Shown piece by piece: positions 9,001-21,000 of a stretch of 64,000 bases of DNA (its first letter is position 1; each line of letters starts with the position of its first letter). The position numbers are program-made. The stretch is from the NCBI RefSeq assembly GCF_045037415.1, contig NZ_CP173438.1. One strand, 5' to 3'. The DNA comes from Escherichia coli. Lineage in GTDB: Bacteria; Pseudomonadota; Gammaproteobacteria; Enterobacterales; Enterobacteriaceae.

Positions 9001-12000
9001 GTGAAGGTGAACAACATTGGCGAAATCGCTGCGGCGGGCGCGGATATGTTTGTTGCTGGTTCGGCAATCTTCGACCAGCCAGACTACAAAAAAGTCATTG
9101 ATGAAATGCGCAGTGAACTGGCAAAGGTAAGTCATGAATAAGTTTGAAGATATTCGCGGCGTCGCTTTTGATCTCGACGGTACGCTGGTTGACAGTGCAC
9201 CCGGTCTTGCTGCTGCGGTAGATATGGCGCTGTATGCGCTGGAGTTGCCTGTCGCAGGTGAAGAACGCGTTATTACCTGGATTGGTAACGGCGCAGATAT
9301 TCTGATGGAGCGCGCATTGACCTGGGCGCGTCAGGAACGTGCGACTCTGCGTAAAACAATGGGTAAACCGCCCGTTGATGACGACATTCCGGCAGAAGAA
9401 CAGGTACGTATTCTGCGTAAACTGTTCGATCGCTACTATGGCGAGGTTGCCGAAGAGGGGACGTTTTTGTTCCCGCATGTTGCCGATACGTTGGGCGCGT
9501 TGCAGGCTAAAGGCCTGCCGCTAGGCCTGGTCACCAACAAACCGACGCCGTTCGTCGCGCCGCTGCTCGAAGCCTTAGATATCGCCAAATACTTCAGCGT
9601 GGTGATTGGTGGTGATGATGTGCAAAACAAAAAACCGCATCCGGACCCGCTGTTACTGGTGGCTGAACGGATGGGCATTGCTCCACAACAGATGCTGTTT
9701 GTTGGCGACTCACGCAATGATATTCAGGCAGCAAAAGCGGCAGGTTGCCCATCAGTTGGCTTAACCTACGGATATAACTACGGCGAGGCTATCGATCTCA
9801 GCCAGCCTGATGTAATTTATCAGTCTATAAATGACCTTCTGCCCGCATTAGGGCTTCCGCATAGCGAAAATCAGGAATCGAAAAATGACTAAGCCCATCG
9901 TTTTTAGTGGCGCACAGCCCTCAGGTGAATTGACCATTGGTAACTACATGGGTGCGCTGCGTCAGTGGGTAAACATGCAGGATGACTACCATTGCATTTA
10001 CTGTATCGTTGACCAACATGCGATCACCGTGCGCCAGGATGCACAGAAGCTGCGTAAAGCGACGCTGGATACGCTGGCGTTGTATCTGGCTTGTGGTATC
10101 GATCCTGAGAAAAGCACCATTTTTGTTCAGTCCCACGTGCCGGAACATGCGCAGTTAGGCTGGGCATTGAACTGCTATACCTACTTCGGCGAACTGAGCC
10201 GCATGACGCAGTTTAAAGATAAATCTGCGCGTTATGCCGAGAACATCAACGCTGGTCTGTTTGACTATCCGGTGCTGATGGCAGCGGACATCCTGCTGTA
10301 TCAAACAAATCTGGTACCGGTGGGTGAAGACCAGAAACAGCACCTGGAACTGAGCCGCGATATCGCCCAGCGTTTCAACGCGCTGTACGGCGATATCTTT
10401 AAGGTGCCAGAGCCGTTTATTCCGAAATCTGGCGCGCGCGTAATGTCGCTGCTGGAGCCGACCAAGAAAATGTCCAAGTCTGACGATAACCGCAATAACG
10501 TTATCGGCCTGCTGGAAGATCCGAAATCGGTAGTGAAGAAAATCAAACGCGCGGTCACTGACTCCGACGAGCCGCCAGTAGTTCGCTACGATGTGCAGAA
10601 CAAAGCGGGCGTTTCCAACCTGCTGGATATCCTTTCTGCGGTAACGGGCCAGAGCATCCCGGAACTGGAAAAACAGTTCGAAGGCAAGATGTATGGTCAT
10701 CTGAAAGGTGAAGTGGCTGATGCCGTTTCCGGTATGCTGACTGAATTGCAGGAACGTTACCACCGTTTCCGCAACGATGAAGCCTTCCTGCAACAGGTGA
10801 TGAAAGACGGCGCAGAAAAAGCCAGCGCACACGCTTCCCGTACGCTAAAAGCGGTGTACGAAGCGATTGGTTTTGTGGCGAAGCCGTAATTTAACATTAA
10901 TGCCAAAAAAACCGGGGAAACCCGGTTTTTTTATCCTCATTTGCAATAATCCGAAAAAATGTGAAGCGCCTCGCCGTTTCCACATCTCGCTGTTGCGCCT
11001 TATCTTCAAATTCATGAAGATATAAACATTCATTTTATTGAAAATATATTATGCGTCGAACGTTTATCAAAAAAGAAGGCGTCGTTATCACGACACTGGC
11101 CCGTTATTTGTTGGGTGAAAAGTGCGGTAATCGACTGAAAACCATAGATGAGCTGGCAACTGAATGCCGTTCATCGGTTGGCCTGACGCAGGCCGCGTTG
11201 AAAACGCTGGAATCAAGCGGAGCGATACGGATTGAACGCCGTGGGCGCAATGGCAGTTATCTGGTTGAGATGGATAACAAAGCATTGCTGACTCATGTGG
11301 ATATCAACAACGTGGTATGTGCGATGCCCTTGCCCTATACCCGTTTGTACGAAGGCCTGGCGAGCGGATTGAAAGCCCAGTTTGATGGCATTCCTTTTTA
11401 CTATGCGCATATGCGCGGCGCGGATATTCGCGTGGAGTGTTTACTTAACGGCGTGTATGACATGGCGGTGGTTTCGCGACTGGCGGCGGAAAGTTATCTC
11501 ACGCAAAAAGGATTATGCCTCGCGCTGGAGTTGGGACCGCATACCTACGTTGGCGAGCACCAGTTGATTTGCCGTAAAGGCGAGTCCGCAAACGTGAAGC
11601 GCGTGGGGCTGGATAACCGTTCGGCGGATCAGAAAATCATGACCGATGTCTTTTTTGGCGATAGTGATGTGGAACGAGTCGATCTCTCTTATCACGAGAG
11701 TTTACAACGCATTGTTAAAGGCGATGTTGACGCGGTTATCTGGAACGTAGTGGCGGAAAACGAACTGACCATGCTGGGATTAGAAGCGACGCCGCTCACA
11801 GACGATCCGCGATTTTTACAGGCCACCGAAGCCGTGGTCCTGACGCGAGTCGATGATTACCCAATGCAACAACTGCTGCGTGCAGTTGTTGATAAACATG
11901 CCCTGCTTGCTCATCAACAGCGAGTAGTCAGTGGGGAACAGGAACCCAGTTATTAAACGAAAGGCATCTGATATGGAAACCAGACTCAACCTGCTTTGCG

Positions 12001-18000: not shown

Positions 18001-21000
18001 ATGCCGATGTTATTAGCCGGATTCGCGCCACGCTCTATTCCGGCGGCAGTCAGATTCAGGGGGCGCAGGCATTAGAGGTGTTGCGTGGTCTGGTGCTCGC
18101 GCCAGTGATGCACGCGGTGCAGGCGGGGGTATCTGAACGGTTGCTGGCTTTGCTTAACGGCGGCGCGGTGGCGGAAGTGAAAAGCGCCGTCATTGCCAAT
18201 GCACAGTCGAAGGTATTGATTGTGGAGTTTCATCAGCCGATTGCCGCCAGAGTGCTGGAAGAGGCGCAGAAACTCGGTGCCTTGCCTTACCCGGTTGGTG
18301 CAGAGTCGAAATATGAAATCCCGCCGCTCTTTTATCGACTTTCCGGAACGTTTCGCCAGGCGAATCCGCAGTTAGAACATTGCGCGATTCGCATTAACCC
18401 AAATCGCGGCGGTGAAGAGACGATATTGCGGATCTTGCGTGAAAGTATTGCCAGCATTTAATCGTTGTAAACGATATTTTCGAAAAGAATGCAGAAACAA
18501 ATACGCCCTCGGATAACTCCGAGGGCGTCAGGCAATTAAACCGGCGTTAGCCGATTTCTGTCAGAGACTTACTGTGCAGTCGGACCGCAACCGCCAATGA
18601 TTTTAGAAATAGAAATTGCCGGGTGCAGCAGGTAGTCGTAAGAGCAGTTCTTATCACGGTTTTCAATATGACCAGTACATGCAGTTAACGTAGCCAGTAC
18701 TGCGCCTACCAGTGCAACTTTAATAAATTTGTTCATTTACATTCCCTATGTATTATATATTAATTAATATTCATTGATTATATGAATATAAGCAGACTGC
18801 TCATTAAGAACGATACAGGAATATTCAATTAGCGTCAGTGAGCGATTGGCTTAATTTTGTAAGTTGCTGTAACGGTGAATATAACCCATTAGCAGACAAT
18901 ATTTATTAAGGGGTTATATTTTTATCTGCTGAATATATAAAGAGAGTTGTAAACGAAAAAGGCCAGACTTCTCTGGCCCTGGTTAAATTAATGGTTAGAG
19001 AACCAGTTCAATTTATCGCGCAGGCCAACAACCCGACCAATAATAATTAGCGATGGACTGTTCATTTGCTGCGCCAGTTCGCCCAGCTGCGTGAGCGTAC
19101 CGTCAATCACGCGCTGCGTGACTGCCGTTCCGTTTTCGACAATTGCTACCGGCATTTCACCAGGCATACCGTATTCAATCAGCTTTTGCTGAATAGTTGC
19201 AGCCTGATTCAGCCCCATATAAAACACCAGCGTCTGTTTTTCTGCCGCCAGGTTTTCCCAGTCCAGCTCGCCACCGGTTTTTAAGTGTCCAGTAATTAAG
19301 CGTACGCTCTGGGCATAATCGCGATGCGTGAGCGGAATACCCGAATAGGCAGAGCAACCAGAGGCTGCGGTAATACCCGGAACCACCGAGAATGGAATAC
19401 CCGCGTTGCACAGTGTTTCCAGCTCTTCGCCACCACGGCCAAAAATAAACGGATCGCCGCCTTTCAGCCGCACCACGCGTTTGCCTTTTTGCGCTTCCCG
19501 CAGCAGGATCTGGTTAATCTCTTCCTGCGGTACGCAGTGGTATCCCGCGCGTTTGCCGACGAAAACGCGATCAGCATCGCGGCGTACCAGATTCATAATA
19601 TCGTCAGAAACCAGACGGTCGTAGACCACCACATCTGCCTGCTGAATTTGTTGCAGACCTTTCAGTGTCAGCAGCCCGGCATCGCCCGGACCTGCACCAA
19701 CCAGCACCACTTCACCGCGATGATCGAGCGGTTCATTGATTAACTGTTCGGTGGTTTCAGTAATGGCTTTCTGATCGTTGTTGGCCAGCGACTGCGCCAG
19801 GCGGTCATTAACGAACAATTTCTCCCAGAAACGGCGACGCTCACCCATCGTGGCGAACTGTTGTTTCACTCGCCCGCGTAATTGCCCGGCGTATTTCGCT
19901 ACCTGGCCCAGATGTAACGGCAGCAGTGATTCGAGTTTTTCGCGCAACAGGCGCGCCAGAACCGGAGAGGTGCCGCCAGAGGAAACCGCTACCATGAGCG
20001 GCGAGCGGTCAATAATCGACGGCATAATAAAGCTGGCGGCTTTCGGCGCATCGACCACGTTACAGAAGATGCGACGAGCTTCAGCGGCTTCGCTGACGCG
20101 CTGGTTAAGCGCGTCATCATCCGTCGCTGCAATCGCCAGCCAGCAGGTGTCGAGAAGGCTTTCATCAAATGGCCCTTCGACGAGGGTTAACATGCCTGCA
20201 TCTGCCCATGCGGTGAACTGTGGAATAAACGCTAATGCATTCACCGTTAAGCGAGCGCCTGCGTCTAACAGCAACCTTGCTTTGCGTTCCGCGACATCAC
20301 CACCGCCGACAATCAGACAGTCGCGATCGCGTAATTGGCAAAATATAGGCAAATGATCCACGTAAAAACCCCTTAATAATTAACCGGCAGCCGTTTCAGT
20401 TTGATTAAATTTGTCCGCAACCGGACGATTCGCTTTCGGCGTAGCATACCAATAACCCAATCCCATGAATACGGCACCCGATAAAGTATTACCCAGCGTC
20501 ACCCACAGCAGGTTATGACCAATACCCGCCAGCGTGTAGGCTTCGCTGTGGTTGCCGAACCAGGAGAGGGCGAACAGCGTCATGTTAGCGATGGAGTGCT
20601 CGTAGCCGGACGCGATAAATGCCAGCAAACACCACCAGATAGCGATAAATTTCGCCGCCCCTTCAGTGCGCAGCGCCATCCAGATTGCCAGGCAAACCAG
20701 CCAGTTACACAATGCACCTTTGAAGAACAGTACCATTGCCGGTGCAGTGGTTTTAGCCAGCGCGACGGAGTGAACGATGCTGGTATCGACCGGCAGCAGG
20801 CTACCGCCACCCCAGCTATAGAGCATGGCAACAAAGACGGAACCGACCAGGTTACCCAGCCAGGTTTGCGGCAGGATTGCCCACATTTGCCCGTGGCTGA
20901 TAGTGCCCGCTTTCACTCCAAAGGTGAGGAACATGGTGTGTCCGGTGAACAGTTCAGAACCGGCGATAATCACCAGCGTTAAGGCGATACCAAAGGTCGC

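Follow-up and report, generated by a model that had tools for sequence, protein, structure and literature searches.

In Salmonella, D-glucosaminate is handled by the dga genes, which encode a permease of the phosphotransferase system (PTS), DgaABCD, together with the pyridoxal phosphate (PLP)-dependent ammonia-lyase DgaE and the aldolase DgaF. In canonical PTS systems with regulators such as Bgl, LicT and SacY, PRD domains are targets of phosphorylation by HPr and EIIB, and within the phosphotriesterase family Lmo2620 and Mycoplasma enzymes are phospho-sugar lactonases (NCBIfam NF045706). In the Ong pathway of Pseudoalteromonas, which degrades oxidised chitin, the amidohydrolase-superfamily enzyme OngB and the fold-type III PLP deaminase OngC convert N-acetyl-D-glucosaminate to 2-keto-3-deoxygluconate (KDG), OngC acting on the 2-amino-2-deoxy aldonic acid and feeding KDG kinase and Eda (PMC9537276). 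Here we compare with these systems the yhfZ-yhfY-yhfX-yhfW-php-yhfU-yhfT-yhfS cluster, located at positions 11051-18461 of a 64,000-nucleotide stretch of Escherichia coli contig NZ_CP173438.1 (the window). The cluster is long known and annotated in E. coli K-12, and is not a new locus; our literature search found no functional study or functional assignment of it, and the sole mention of yhfZ that we found was as a hit of a peptide-resistance screen.

We propose, with about even confidence, that the eight genes form a self-regulated nutrient-utilisation module for a substrate carrying amino and hydroxyl groups, in which PTS-linked uptake is followed by PLP-dependent catabolism. The module is akin in logic to dga, ong and PRD-regulated PTS operons and is a member of none of them, because comparison by sequence or structure with EIIC, EIIA, DgaE, DeoB and RpiB placed its proteins outside each group. 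It resembles dga in its proposed sequence of steps, in which an amino-sugar acid enters and is phosphorylated through the PTS, a PLP enzyme deaminates it to a keto-deoxy acid phosphate and an Eda-type aldolase cleaves the product, and in a faint match of YhfS to the DgaE-like family. Unlike dga, its permease is not a mannose-type Enzyme II, YhfT and YhfU appear unrelated to known EIIC and EIIB, and the module lacks an aldolase and has, in addition, a phosphomutase, a fold-type III PLP enzyme and a hydrolase of the lactonase family. With Ong it shares the pairing of an amidohydrolase-superfamily hydrolase with a fold-type III PLP enzyme, and both kdgK-eda and a gene for a chitin-binding secreted protein adjoin some yhf clusters. 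However, Ong relies on a sodium-solute symporter and on late phosphorylation via KdgK, and has no PRD protein, mutase or PTS link; OngB is a D-aminoacylase whereas Php belongs to the phosphotriesterase family, and OngC falls in a D-serine dehydratase-like clade whereas YhfX has a C-terminal domain of its own (PF21279). Canonical PTS Enzyme II systems with PRD regulators share several features with the module: a conserved PRD histidine, genes for Enzyme I and HPr linked to it, and a polytopic permease whose gene adjoins that of a small alpha/beta protein bearing a Cys. Unlike Bgl, LicT or SacY, YhfY is a stand-alone single PRD without an RNA- or DNA-binding part, DNA binding being assigned to a separate GntR-like protein; moreover, the Cys protein has RpiB topology, the permease fold is unlike solved EIIC structures, and no EIIA was found in the locus maps.

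A gene set conserved through rearrangement

Relatives were collected with a profile built from a nine-sequence YhfT alignment and one genome per species, and approximately 500 of 100,044 species carry a YhfT relative. The eight E. coli proteins were mapped onto the best-scoring 80 of these ~500 loci, a set biased towards Gammaproteobacteria, and onto metagenome loci obtained by exact-protein look-up; gene maps were drawn from tblastn and simple open reading frame (ORF) calling, and presence was counted in the 59 species-level loci with enough flanking DNA. All 59 contain yhfX, yhfU and yhfT, 57 contain yhfZ, yhfY and php, and 52 contain yhfW, while yhfS, present in 25, is a recurrent accessory gene and not part of the core. 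The members always lie on one strand but occur in 12 gene orders, including (by last letter, with P for php) ZYXWPUTS in Enterobacteriaceae, ZYPUTXW in Vibrionaceae and Aeromonas, ZYUTP(S)XW in Firmicutes, ZYXPUT in several Yersinia and UTXW in Enterovibrio. The set spans Enterobacterales, Vibrionaceae, Aeromonas, Fusobacteriota and Firmicutes, and thus at least three phyla (Proteobacteria, Fusobacteriota, Firmicutes). The genes that flank it vary by lineage, metagenome loci whose YhfT shares only 25-37% identity contain the same set, and the minimal variants are X-U-T and X-S-U-T. Because the same set survives repeated shuffling across Proteobacteria, Fusobacteriota and Firmicutes, we regard these comparisons as strong evidence for functional coupling of the cluster genes.

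Two lineages carry reduced versions. In many Yersinia (L045, L047, L049-L052, L055 and L056) the locus reads Z-Y-X-Php-U-T, with yhfW lost and no yhfS, and Yersinia nurmii has retained yhfW; the loss is a natural experiment on which steps are dispensable. Three Enterovibrio loci (L070, L076 and L077) are limited to U-T-X-W; yhfZ, yhfY and php are all absent within 10 kb.

In the window all eight genes lie on the plus strand, and their coordinates, given with each gene below, agree between our ORF list and the RefSeq annotation of an identical strain. The first-pass annotation, made from the sequence alone, had described eight co-directional, tightly packed genes with short gaps and several overlaps, and the coordinates bear this out: Z-Y 16 bp, Y-X 83 bp, X-W 0 bp, W-php -4 bp (an ATGA overlap), php-U 10 bp, U-T 11 bp and T-S 11 bp. 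Its domain assignments (a winged helix, a PRD, two PLP enzymes, a phosphopentomutase-like enzyme, a phosphotriesterase-family hydrolase and a polytopic membrane protein) also hold, but that list, correct in the families it named, left out YhfU, the universal partner of YhfT, and the PTS link. Several sequenced strains carry the 7.4-kb cluster stretch with 100% identity, and 5061 of 5426 complete E. coli genomes contain it at ≥80% coverage. Its GC content (53.3%, against 51.3% for the window) is host-like and therefore gives no sign of recent transfer.

Proposed uptake and the link to the PTS

How might the substrate of such a module enter the cell? The gene yhfT (16060-17364) encodes a polytopic inner-membrane protein of family PF10797, a presumed permease, and yhfU (15695-16048) encodes a 117-residue DUF2620 protein. 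In 80 of 80 loci yhfU lies immediately 5' of yhfT, at a median gap of 11 bp, whereas the enzyme genes change position between loci; YhfU conservation also exceeds that of the enzymes. Since yhfU always adjoins yhfT while the enzyme genes move, a pattern typical of a transporter subunit, YhfU would be expected to act as a subunit of YhfT. The YhfU fold is RpiB-like, and an invariant loop, G50-x-C52-x-[S/T]-G55-x-G57, places a cysteine in a glycine-rich turn at a helix start. No DUF2620 fusion was found among the best 120 matches of a diverse-profile search, all of which were single-domain proteins. The fold of YhfT is predicted with confidence and has no counterpart among solved structures.

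Two further observations concern YhfT. Residues 6-123 and 228-350 give a weak signal of internal duplication (hhalign probability 51%, E 1.5e-4). A lone distant homologue (24% identity; L012 8001-9978) stands with no DUF2620 or other yhf gene and has a PNP_UDP_1 nucleoside phosphorylase gene directly 3' of it, which suggests that the wider PF10797 family carries other substrates.

Further evidence for a connection to the PTS comes from YhfY and from gene neighbourhood. The gene yhfY (11973-12335) encodes 120 amino acids forming a single PRD-like domain, which the E. coli protein matches weakly (Pfam E 0.004; TIGR03582 28 bits) and its orthologues match clearly (PF00874). His48, Ala52 and Arg55 are 100% conserved in 77 distinct sequences, and the second canonical PRD histidine is replaced by Asn108; YhfY thus has the PRD fold and signature with a candidate phosphorylatable histidine. 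Moreover, genes for Enzyme I and/or HPr occur within or beside the cluster at eight independent loci, all Firmicutes-type or metagenome. Enzyme I directly follows yhfW in L081 and yhfT in L097 and lies beside X-U-T in L093; HPr directly follows yhfW in L085, L087 and L088; L094/95 contains a PRD-HPr-Enzyme I trio, the PRD protein of L094 being encoded next to HPr and Enzyme I; and an HPr-Enzyme I fusion lies beside X-S-U-T in JGI 3300047160. Because there is roughly one ptsHI locus per genome, this adjacency is far beyond chance. A kinase is not a conserved member of the module, whereas a phosphomutase with an intact active site is, and in L094 a histidine-phosphatase-family mutase or phosphatase stands in place of YhfW. 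Because the mutase is kept, or swapped as in L094, a phosphorylated intermediate would be integral to the pathway, and its phosphate needs a source. The most economical reading is that phosphoenolpyruvate-dependent uptake would proceed via YhfT and YhfU, with YhfY as a relay or as a sensor for YhfZ. A more specific form of this proposal, which we advance tentatively and consider rather improbable in full, is that YhfY, YhfU and YhfT together make up a hitherto unrecognised kind of PTS Enzyme II that occurs in E. coli K-12 and in which the PRD His48 would stand in for EIIA, Cys52 of the RpiB fold would be the EIIB-like carrier and YhfT the EIIC, phosphorylating an amino-sugar acid or related amino compound on entry.

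Several observations weigh against this scheme. An EIIA-like gene is present in none of the locus maps, and tblastn with Crr as query, which covers EIIA-Glc and no other EIIA family, gave no match. The Enzyme I/HPr linkage is confined to Firmicutes-type and metagenome loci, and these genes could serve regulation of the PRD protein alone. YhfU is nearer to the isomerase RpiB than to any PTS EIIB, with its cysteine after strand 3 as in RpiB topology, and YhfT has no likeness to a known EIIC family or fold. As a candidate DgaE-like enzyme YhfS fails, scoring 20.3 bits against TIGR03576 where the cut-off is 304. Finally, the hints to the substrate from neighbouring genes are sporadic, each occurring at one or two loci, and they diverge: nagB implies an amino-aldose phosphate and kdgK-eda a keto-deoxy acid, and a kdgK beside the cluster would be needless if the substrate entered already phosphorylated.

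An alternative hypothesis therefore keeps the same catabolic module but takes it not to be driven by the PTS: YhfT would be an ion-coupled secondary transporter and YhfU a cytoplasmic aldose-ketose isomerase of the RpiB kind, equivalent to a deaminase if its substrate were a 2-amino aldose phosphate, while the PRD and Enzyme I/HPr would provide only catabolite-type regulation of YhfZ and the kinase would be encoded elsewhere. We consider this possible, though doubtful. It would account for the lack of an EIIA among the genes mapped and of an EIIC-like fold in YhfT, it agrees with the kdgK-type kinases that adjoin the cluster in L090 and L075, and the invariant C-x-[S/T]-G-x-G loop of YhfU coincides with the catalytic Cys/Thr loop of RpiB. 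However, the catalytic set of RpiB also includes an Asp-His pair after strand 1, His99 and C-terminal Arg residues, whereas YhfU has Leu-Gln at positions 9-10 and, at 117 residues against ~150, ends without the C-terminal, Arg-bearing, phosphate-binding helix. Its match to Pfam LacAB_rpiB (PF02502) reaches only E 0.16, below significance, so that YhfU shares the fold of the RpiB/LacAB group without belonging to PF02502 or carrying the full catalytic set. Moreover, unlike a gene of that group, yhfU is always coupled to a membrane-protein gene, the transporter-subunit pattern described above; the module conserves a phosphomutase and not a kinase; and dedicated Enzyme I/HPr copies occur in eight loci, the PRD-HPr-Enzyme I trio among them.

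Enzymes, neighbouring genes and the substrate

Four cluster proteins have crystal structures: YhfZ (2OZZ), YhfX (4KBX), Php (1BF6/4LEF) and YhfS (4J8L). YhfX (12419-13582), a fold-type III PLP enzyme combining Ala_racemase_N with YhfX-like_C (PF21279), is the most conserved enzyme of the module, and its invariant motif M-T-K61-Q-x-G-R-N marks K61 as the likely PLP lysine. YhfS (17376-18461), the accessory member, has D170 and K196 conserved and is a distant relative of the Cys/Met gamma-family among fold-type I PLP enzymes; both PLP enzymes thus have intact lysines. Php (14806-15684) is essentially identical to 4LEF and 1BF6 and belongs to the phosphotriesterase/lactonase family of the amidohydrolase superfamily. 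Its metal ligands H12, H14, E125, H158, H186 and D243 are conserved in 83 orthologues, and its nearest characterised NCBIfam relatives are phospho-furanose lactonases, with which it has a binuclear metal centre and family in common; its score against NF045706 (96 bits) lies far under the 630-bit cut-off. Php is a textbook orphan enzyme whose structure was solved in the late 1990s. Entry 4LEF, which is E. coli Php, is reported to contain phosphate at the active site, and we know of no lactonase activity of Php on any tested compound.

YhfW (13583-14809) is a phosphopentomutase-type phosphomutase of the alkaline-phosphatase superfamily. Alignment with 3M8W reveals the D10, GDT, D..GH, ADHGND and HTRE motifs, conserved in 76 orthologues, so that all phosphopentomutase metal ligands and the Thr nucleophile motif are kept, with a divergent middle cap domain. 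It does not qualify as a DeoB equivalog (NF003766, 179.8 bits against a cut-off of 256; TIGR01696, 140.8 against 341) and scores 735 bits with its own model, PRK12383. Could the cluster then salvage an unusual nucleoside or pentose, with nucleoside-like import by YhfT, conversion of a pentose 1-phosphate to the 5-phosphate by YhfW, ribose-5-phosphate isomerisation by YhfU, and trimming of a modified base or amino substituent by Php and the PLP enzymes? The complete set of phosphopentomutase catalytic motifs, the RpiB fold of YhfU and the phosphorylase gene beside the distant YhfT homologue in L012 are in keeping with such a role, which we nevertheless consider quite improbable: yhfW is missing in 7 of the 59 loci (several Yersinia) and from the minimal X-U-T and X-S-U-T variants, whereas the PLP enzyme YhfX is universal; no true cluster contains a nucleoside phosphorylase or hydrolase; and YhfW falls under the DeoB cut-offs, its cap domain having diverged.

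What the catabolic module would act on is suggested by its enzymes and, in places, by its neighbours. The presence of two PLP enzymes implies a substrate with a primary amine, probably at the alpha-carbon, and OngB with OngC provides a precedent for an amidohydrolase-superfamily enzyme working with a fold-type III PLP deaminase (PMC9537276). Directly 3' of the cluster in the Bacilli Thalassobacillus and Melghirimyces lies nagB, scoring above the TIGR00502 cut-off. The genes kdgK and eda are directly 5' and co-directional in L090 and are adjacent in Vibrio tubiashii (L075); 2-hydroxyacid dehydrogenase genes are adjacent in L084 and L088, an RraA-like aldolase-family protein is encoded in L084, and a Cof-type sugar phosphatase in L008. 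Small neighbouring ORFs in L090, L085, L010, L084 and L067 gave no family matches. The substrate is most likely derived from an amino sugar, or is a 2-amino-2-deoxy sugar acid in free or lactone form. Assignment to this one class, taken as amino sugar acids with their lactones and close amino sugar relatives, is tentative, and we would not yet expect it to hold. The phosphorylated or amino-substituted sugar or amino-acid derivative that had been envisaged from the sequence alone is in agreement with the enzymes of the cluster and with its sporadic neighbours.

Other neighbours were observed in particular lineages. An amidase-like protein, with weak amidase-family matches, is encoded inside the cluster in Sebaldella (L067 11347-12378) and in a metagenome locus (L097 6961-8094), and a 768-residue protein of Clostridium citroniae (AFDB G5HJH7) apparently fuses an amidase-like part to YhfT. 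Eight species of Aeromonas, Photobacterium, Pluralibacter, Enterobacter and Vibrio encode a secreted protein family next to the cluster (L002 8784-9776 and L066 13942-16125, and also L043, L048, L058, L069, L071 and L091). Its core of ~330 residues has no Pfam or NCBIfam assignment, and the Photobacterium members, of ~727 residues, end in a CBM5/12 chitin-binding module; the family may generate the substrate outside the cell.

The idea that the genes are mere neighbours, or a biosynthetic cluster making, for example, a modified amino sugar, could appeal to the fact that no expression or phenotype data were found in the literature and that the enzymes could in principle run either way, but it is very improbable given a set kept through 12 rearrangements in three phyla, a regulator of its own with a ligand-binding domain, a transporter, a patchy, island-like distribution (~500 of 100,044 species), catabolic neighbours (nagB, kdgK, eda and sugar phosphatases) and no glycosyltransferase or nucleotide-sugar genes.

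Regulation and a proposed mechanism

The first gene, yhfZ (11051-11956), encodes a winged-helix regulator that matches NCBIfam YhfZ_full; the winged helix (HTH_41) occupies its N-terminal part, and the C-terminal part is a ligand-binding domain, YhfZ_C, whose structure is 2OZZ. In a profile search against PDB sequences the helix-turn-helix proved CodY- and GntR-like, and the ligand domain found no relative beyond 2OZZ, the remaining matches being winged-helix proteins only. Where might YhfZ bind? Three palindromes in the window are candidate operators. The first, ATCTTCA-N6-TGAAGAT (11002..11021), is conserved in Enterobacteriaceae at approximately -46 of yhfZ. The second, ACATTCA-N6-TGAAAAT (11026..11045), has one mismatch and lies just 5' of the yhfZ ATG, at a position (~-22) that is likewise conserved in Enterobacteriaceae. 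The third, ATATTCA-N6-TGAATAT (12368..12387), ends 32 bp short of the yhfX ATG (12419), within the gap between yhfY and yhfX, and its core, ~48 bp before yhfX, is conserved in Escherichia, Citrobacter, Klebsiella and Trabulsiella. The pattern AT-N-TTCA-N6-TGAA-N-AT matches three times in the 64-kb window, against 0.18 expected, and all three copies fall in the two non-coding regions of the cluster, before yhfZ and between yhfY and yhfX. Across loci, the TTCA-N6-TGAA core occurs at 7.3 per kb within 130 bp 5' of the first cluster gene, against 0.11 per kb overall, and is found there in 52 of 77 loci, which include Vibrionaceae, Yersinia and Sebaldella (three copies); one Aeromonas locus outside the 77 has it too. 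These distributions suggest that the palindrome is the YhfZ operator, a candidate assignment. In the three Enterovibrio loci, a TTCA-N6-TGAA palindrome lies ~220-230 bp 5' of yhfU although yhfZ is not local, and the regulator may be encoded elsewhere in these genomes.

The yhfY-yhfX gap has an unremarkable folding energy (z -1.2), and for this reason we take its palindrome for a site of protein binding rather than a terminator. Because this operator-like sequence sits in the 83-bp gap, the cluster probably comprises two co-regulated units, yhfZY and yhfXW-php-yhfUTS, rather than one eight-gene operon. An operon table reproduced in PMC4448311 lists a six-gene unit, php-yhfSTUWX, in agreement with this division. 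The operon-like cluster of eight genes put forward in the first-pass annotation is therefore best kept as a functional unit, probably transcribed as two and with yhfS as an accessory member; its suggestion of a regulated uptake-and-catabolism unit is supported by the 12 gene orders in at least three phyla and by the palindromes before yhfZ and yhfX.

Strong terminators are found only at the two ends of the cluster. Upstream, the intrinsic terminator of trpS (10905..10932, plus strand), a hairpin with arms AAAAAAACCGGG and CCCGGTTTTTTT, is a perfect 12-nt inverted repeat between A and T runs that would isolate the cluster from upstream transcription. Downstream, a G+C-rich hairpin between the convergent genes yhfS and yhfL (18503..18528; 11-pair stem, 8 G-C) is likely a bidirectional terminator closing the cluster. 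A sigma-70 promoter scan returned 8 sites, against 7.8 in shuffled sequence, and no promoter is claimed. A search of the cluster and its surroundings with Rfam revealed no known RNA element, riboswitches included. The Brucella small RNA BSnc120 gave an Rfam match below threshold (10887-10950, minus strand; 24 bits against a gathering score of 114, E 0.05); its coordinates coincide with those of the trpS terminator hairpin, which almost certainly accounts for it.

Both ends of the locus differ from K-12. The cluster had been noted as the neighbour of the variable frl island in K-12; this is correct for K-12, where the frlABCDR fructoselysine island lies between yhfL and yhfS (L099 3617-8935), but the island is absent from the window (18462-18990), in which yhfS is directly followed by yhfL and cysG. 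The yhfS-yhfL junction is uninterrupted in 2105 of the 5426 complete E. coli genomes, so that the frl insertion site is polymorphic. K-12 also has a 128-bp REP/BIME-like insertion separating the trpS stop codon from the terminator (L099 16346-16634), which is missing in the window (10889-10905); the trpS terminator and the candidate yhfZ operators are otherwise kept.

The anatomy, cross-phylum conservation, predicted folds, conserved catalytic residues, palindromes and Enzyme I/HPr linkage were obtained directly, and from them we infer the following steps. YhfZ, bound to the TTCA-N6-TGAA palindromes before yhfZ and yhfX, would control yhfZY and yhfXW-php-yhfUTS, its C-terminal domain sensing the substrate or its phosphorylated intermediate. 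The permease YhfT and the small cytoplasmic YhfU would form an obligate uptake pair, with phosphate passing from Enzyme I to HPr, possibly to His48 of YhfY, then to Cys52 of YhfU and on to the substrate, so that YhfY would be either a phosphoryl relay or a reporter of transport state to YhfZ. Phosphorylation of the substrate on arrival would explain why the module has no kinase of its own. YhfX would epimerise or deaminate the alpha-amino centre; YhfS, where present, would carry out a second elimination or a transamination; Php would open the phosphorylated substrate in its lactone form, or in some other ester or amide form; and YhfW would shift the phosphate to the position needed downstream. 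Enzymes whose genes lie elsewhere in E. coli, Eda or NagB for instance, would then channel the products into central metabolism.

The cluster combines the long-standing orphan Php, a membrane-protein fold absent from the PDB and a new hypothesis of PTS coupling. A set of y-genes now has a candidate YhfZ operator, a predicted dependence on ptsI and ptsH, a specific candidate residue in YhfU Cys52, and a short list of substrates, namely amino-sugar acids and lactones, including products of oxidised chitin or chitosan. It is a substrate-specific catabolic island with uptake and phosphorylation machinery that appears to consist of parts unrelated to known ones. If the PTS coupling is true, E. coli and several hundred other species would possess a transporter family unrelated to the known parts of Enzyme II, which would bear on the evolution of the PTS and on the annotation of DUF2620 and PF10797 in gut and marine bacteria.

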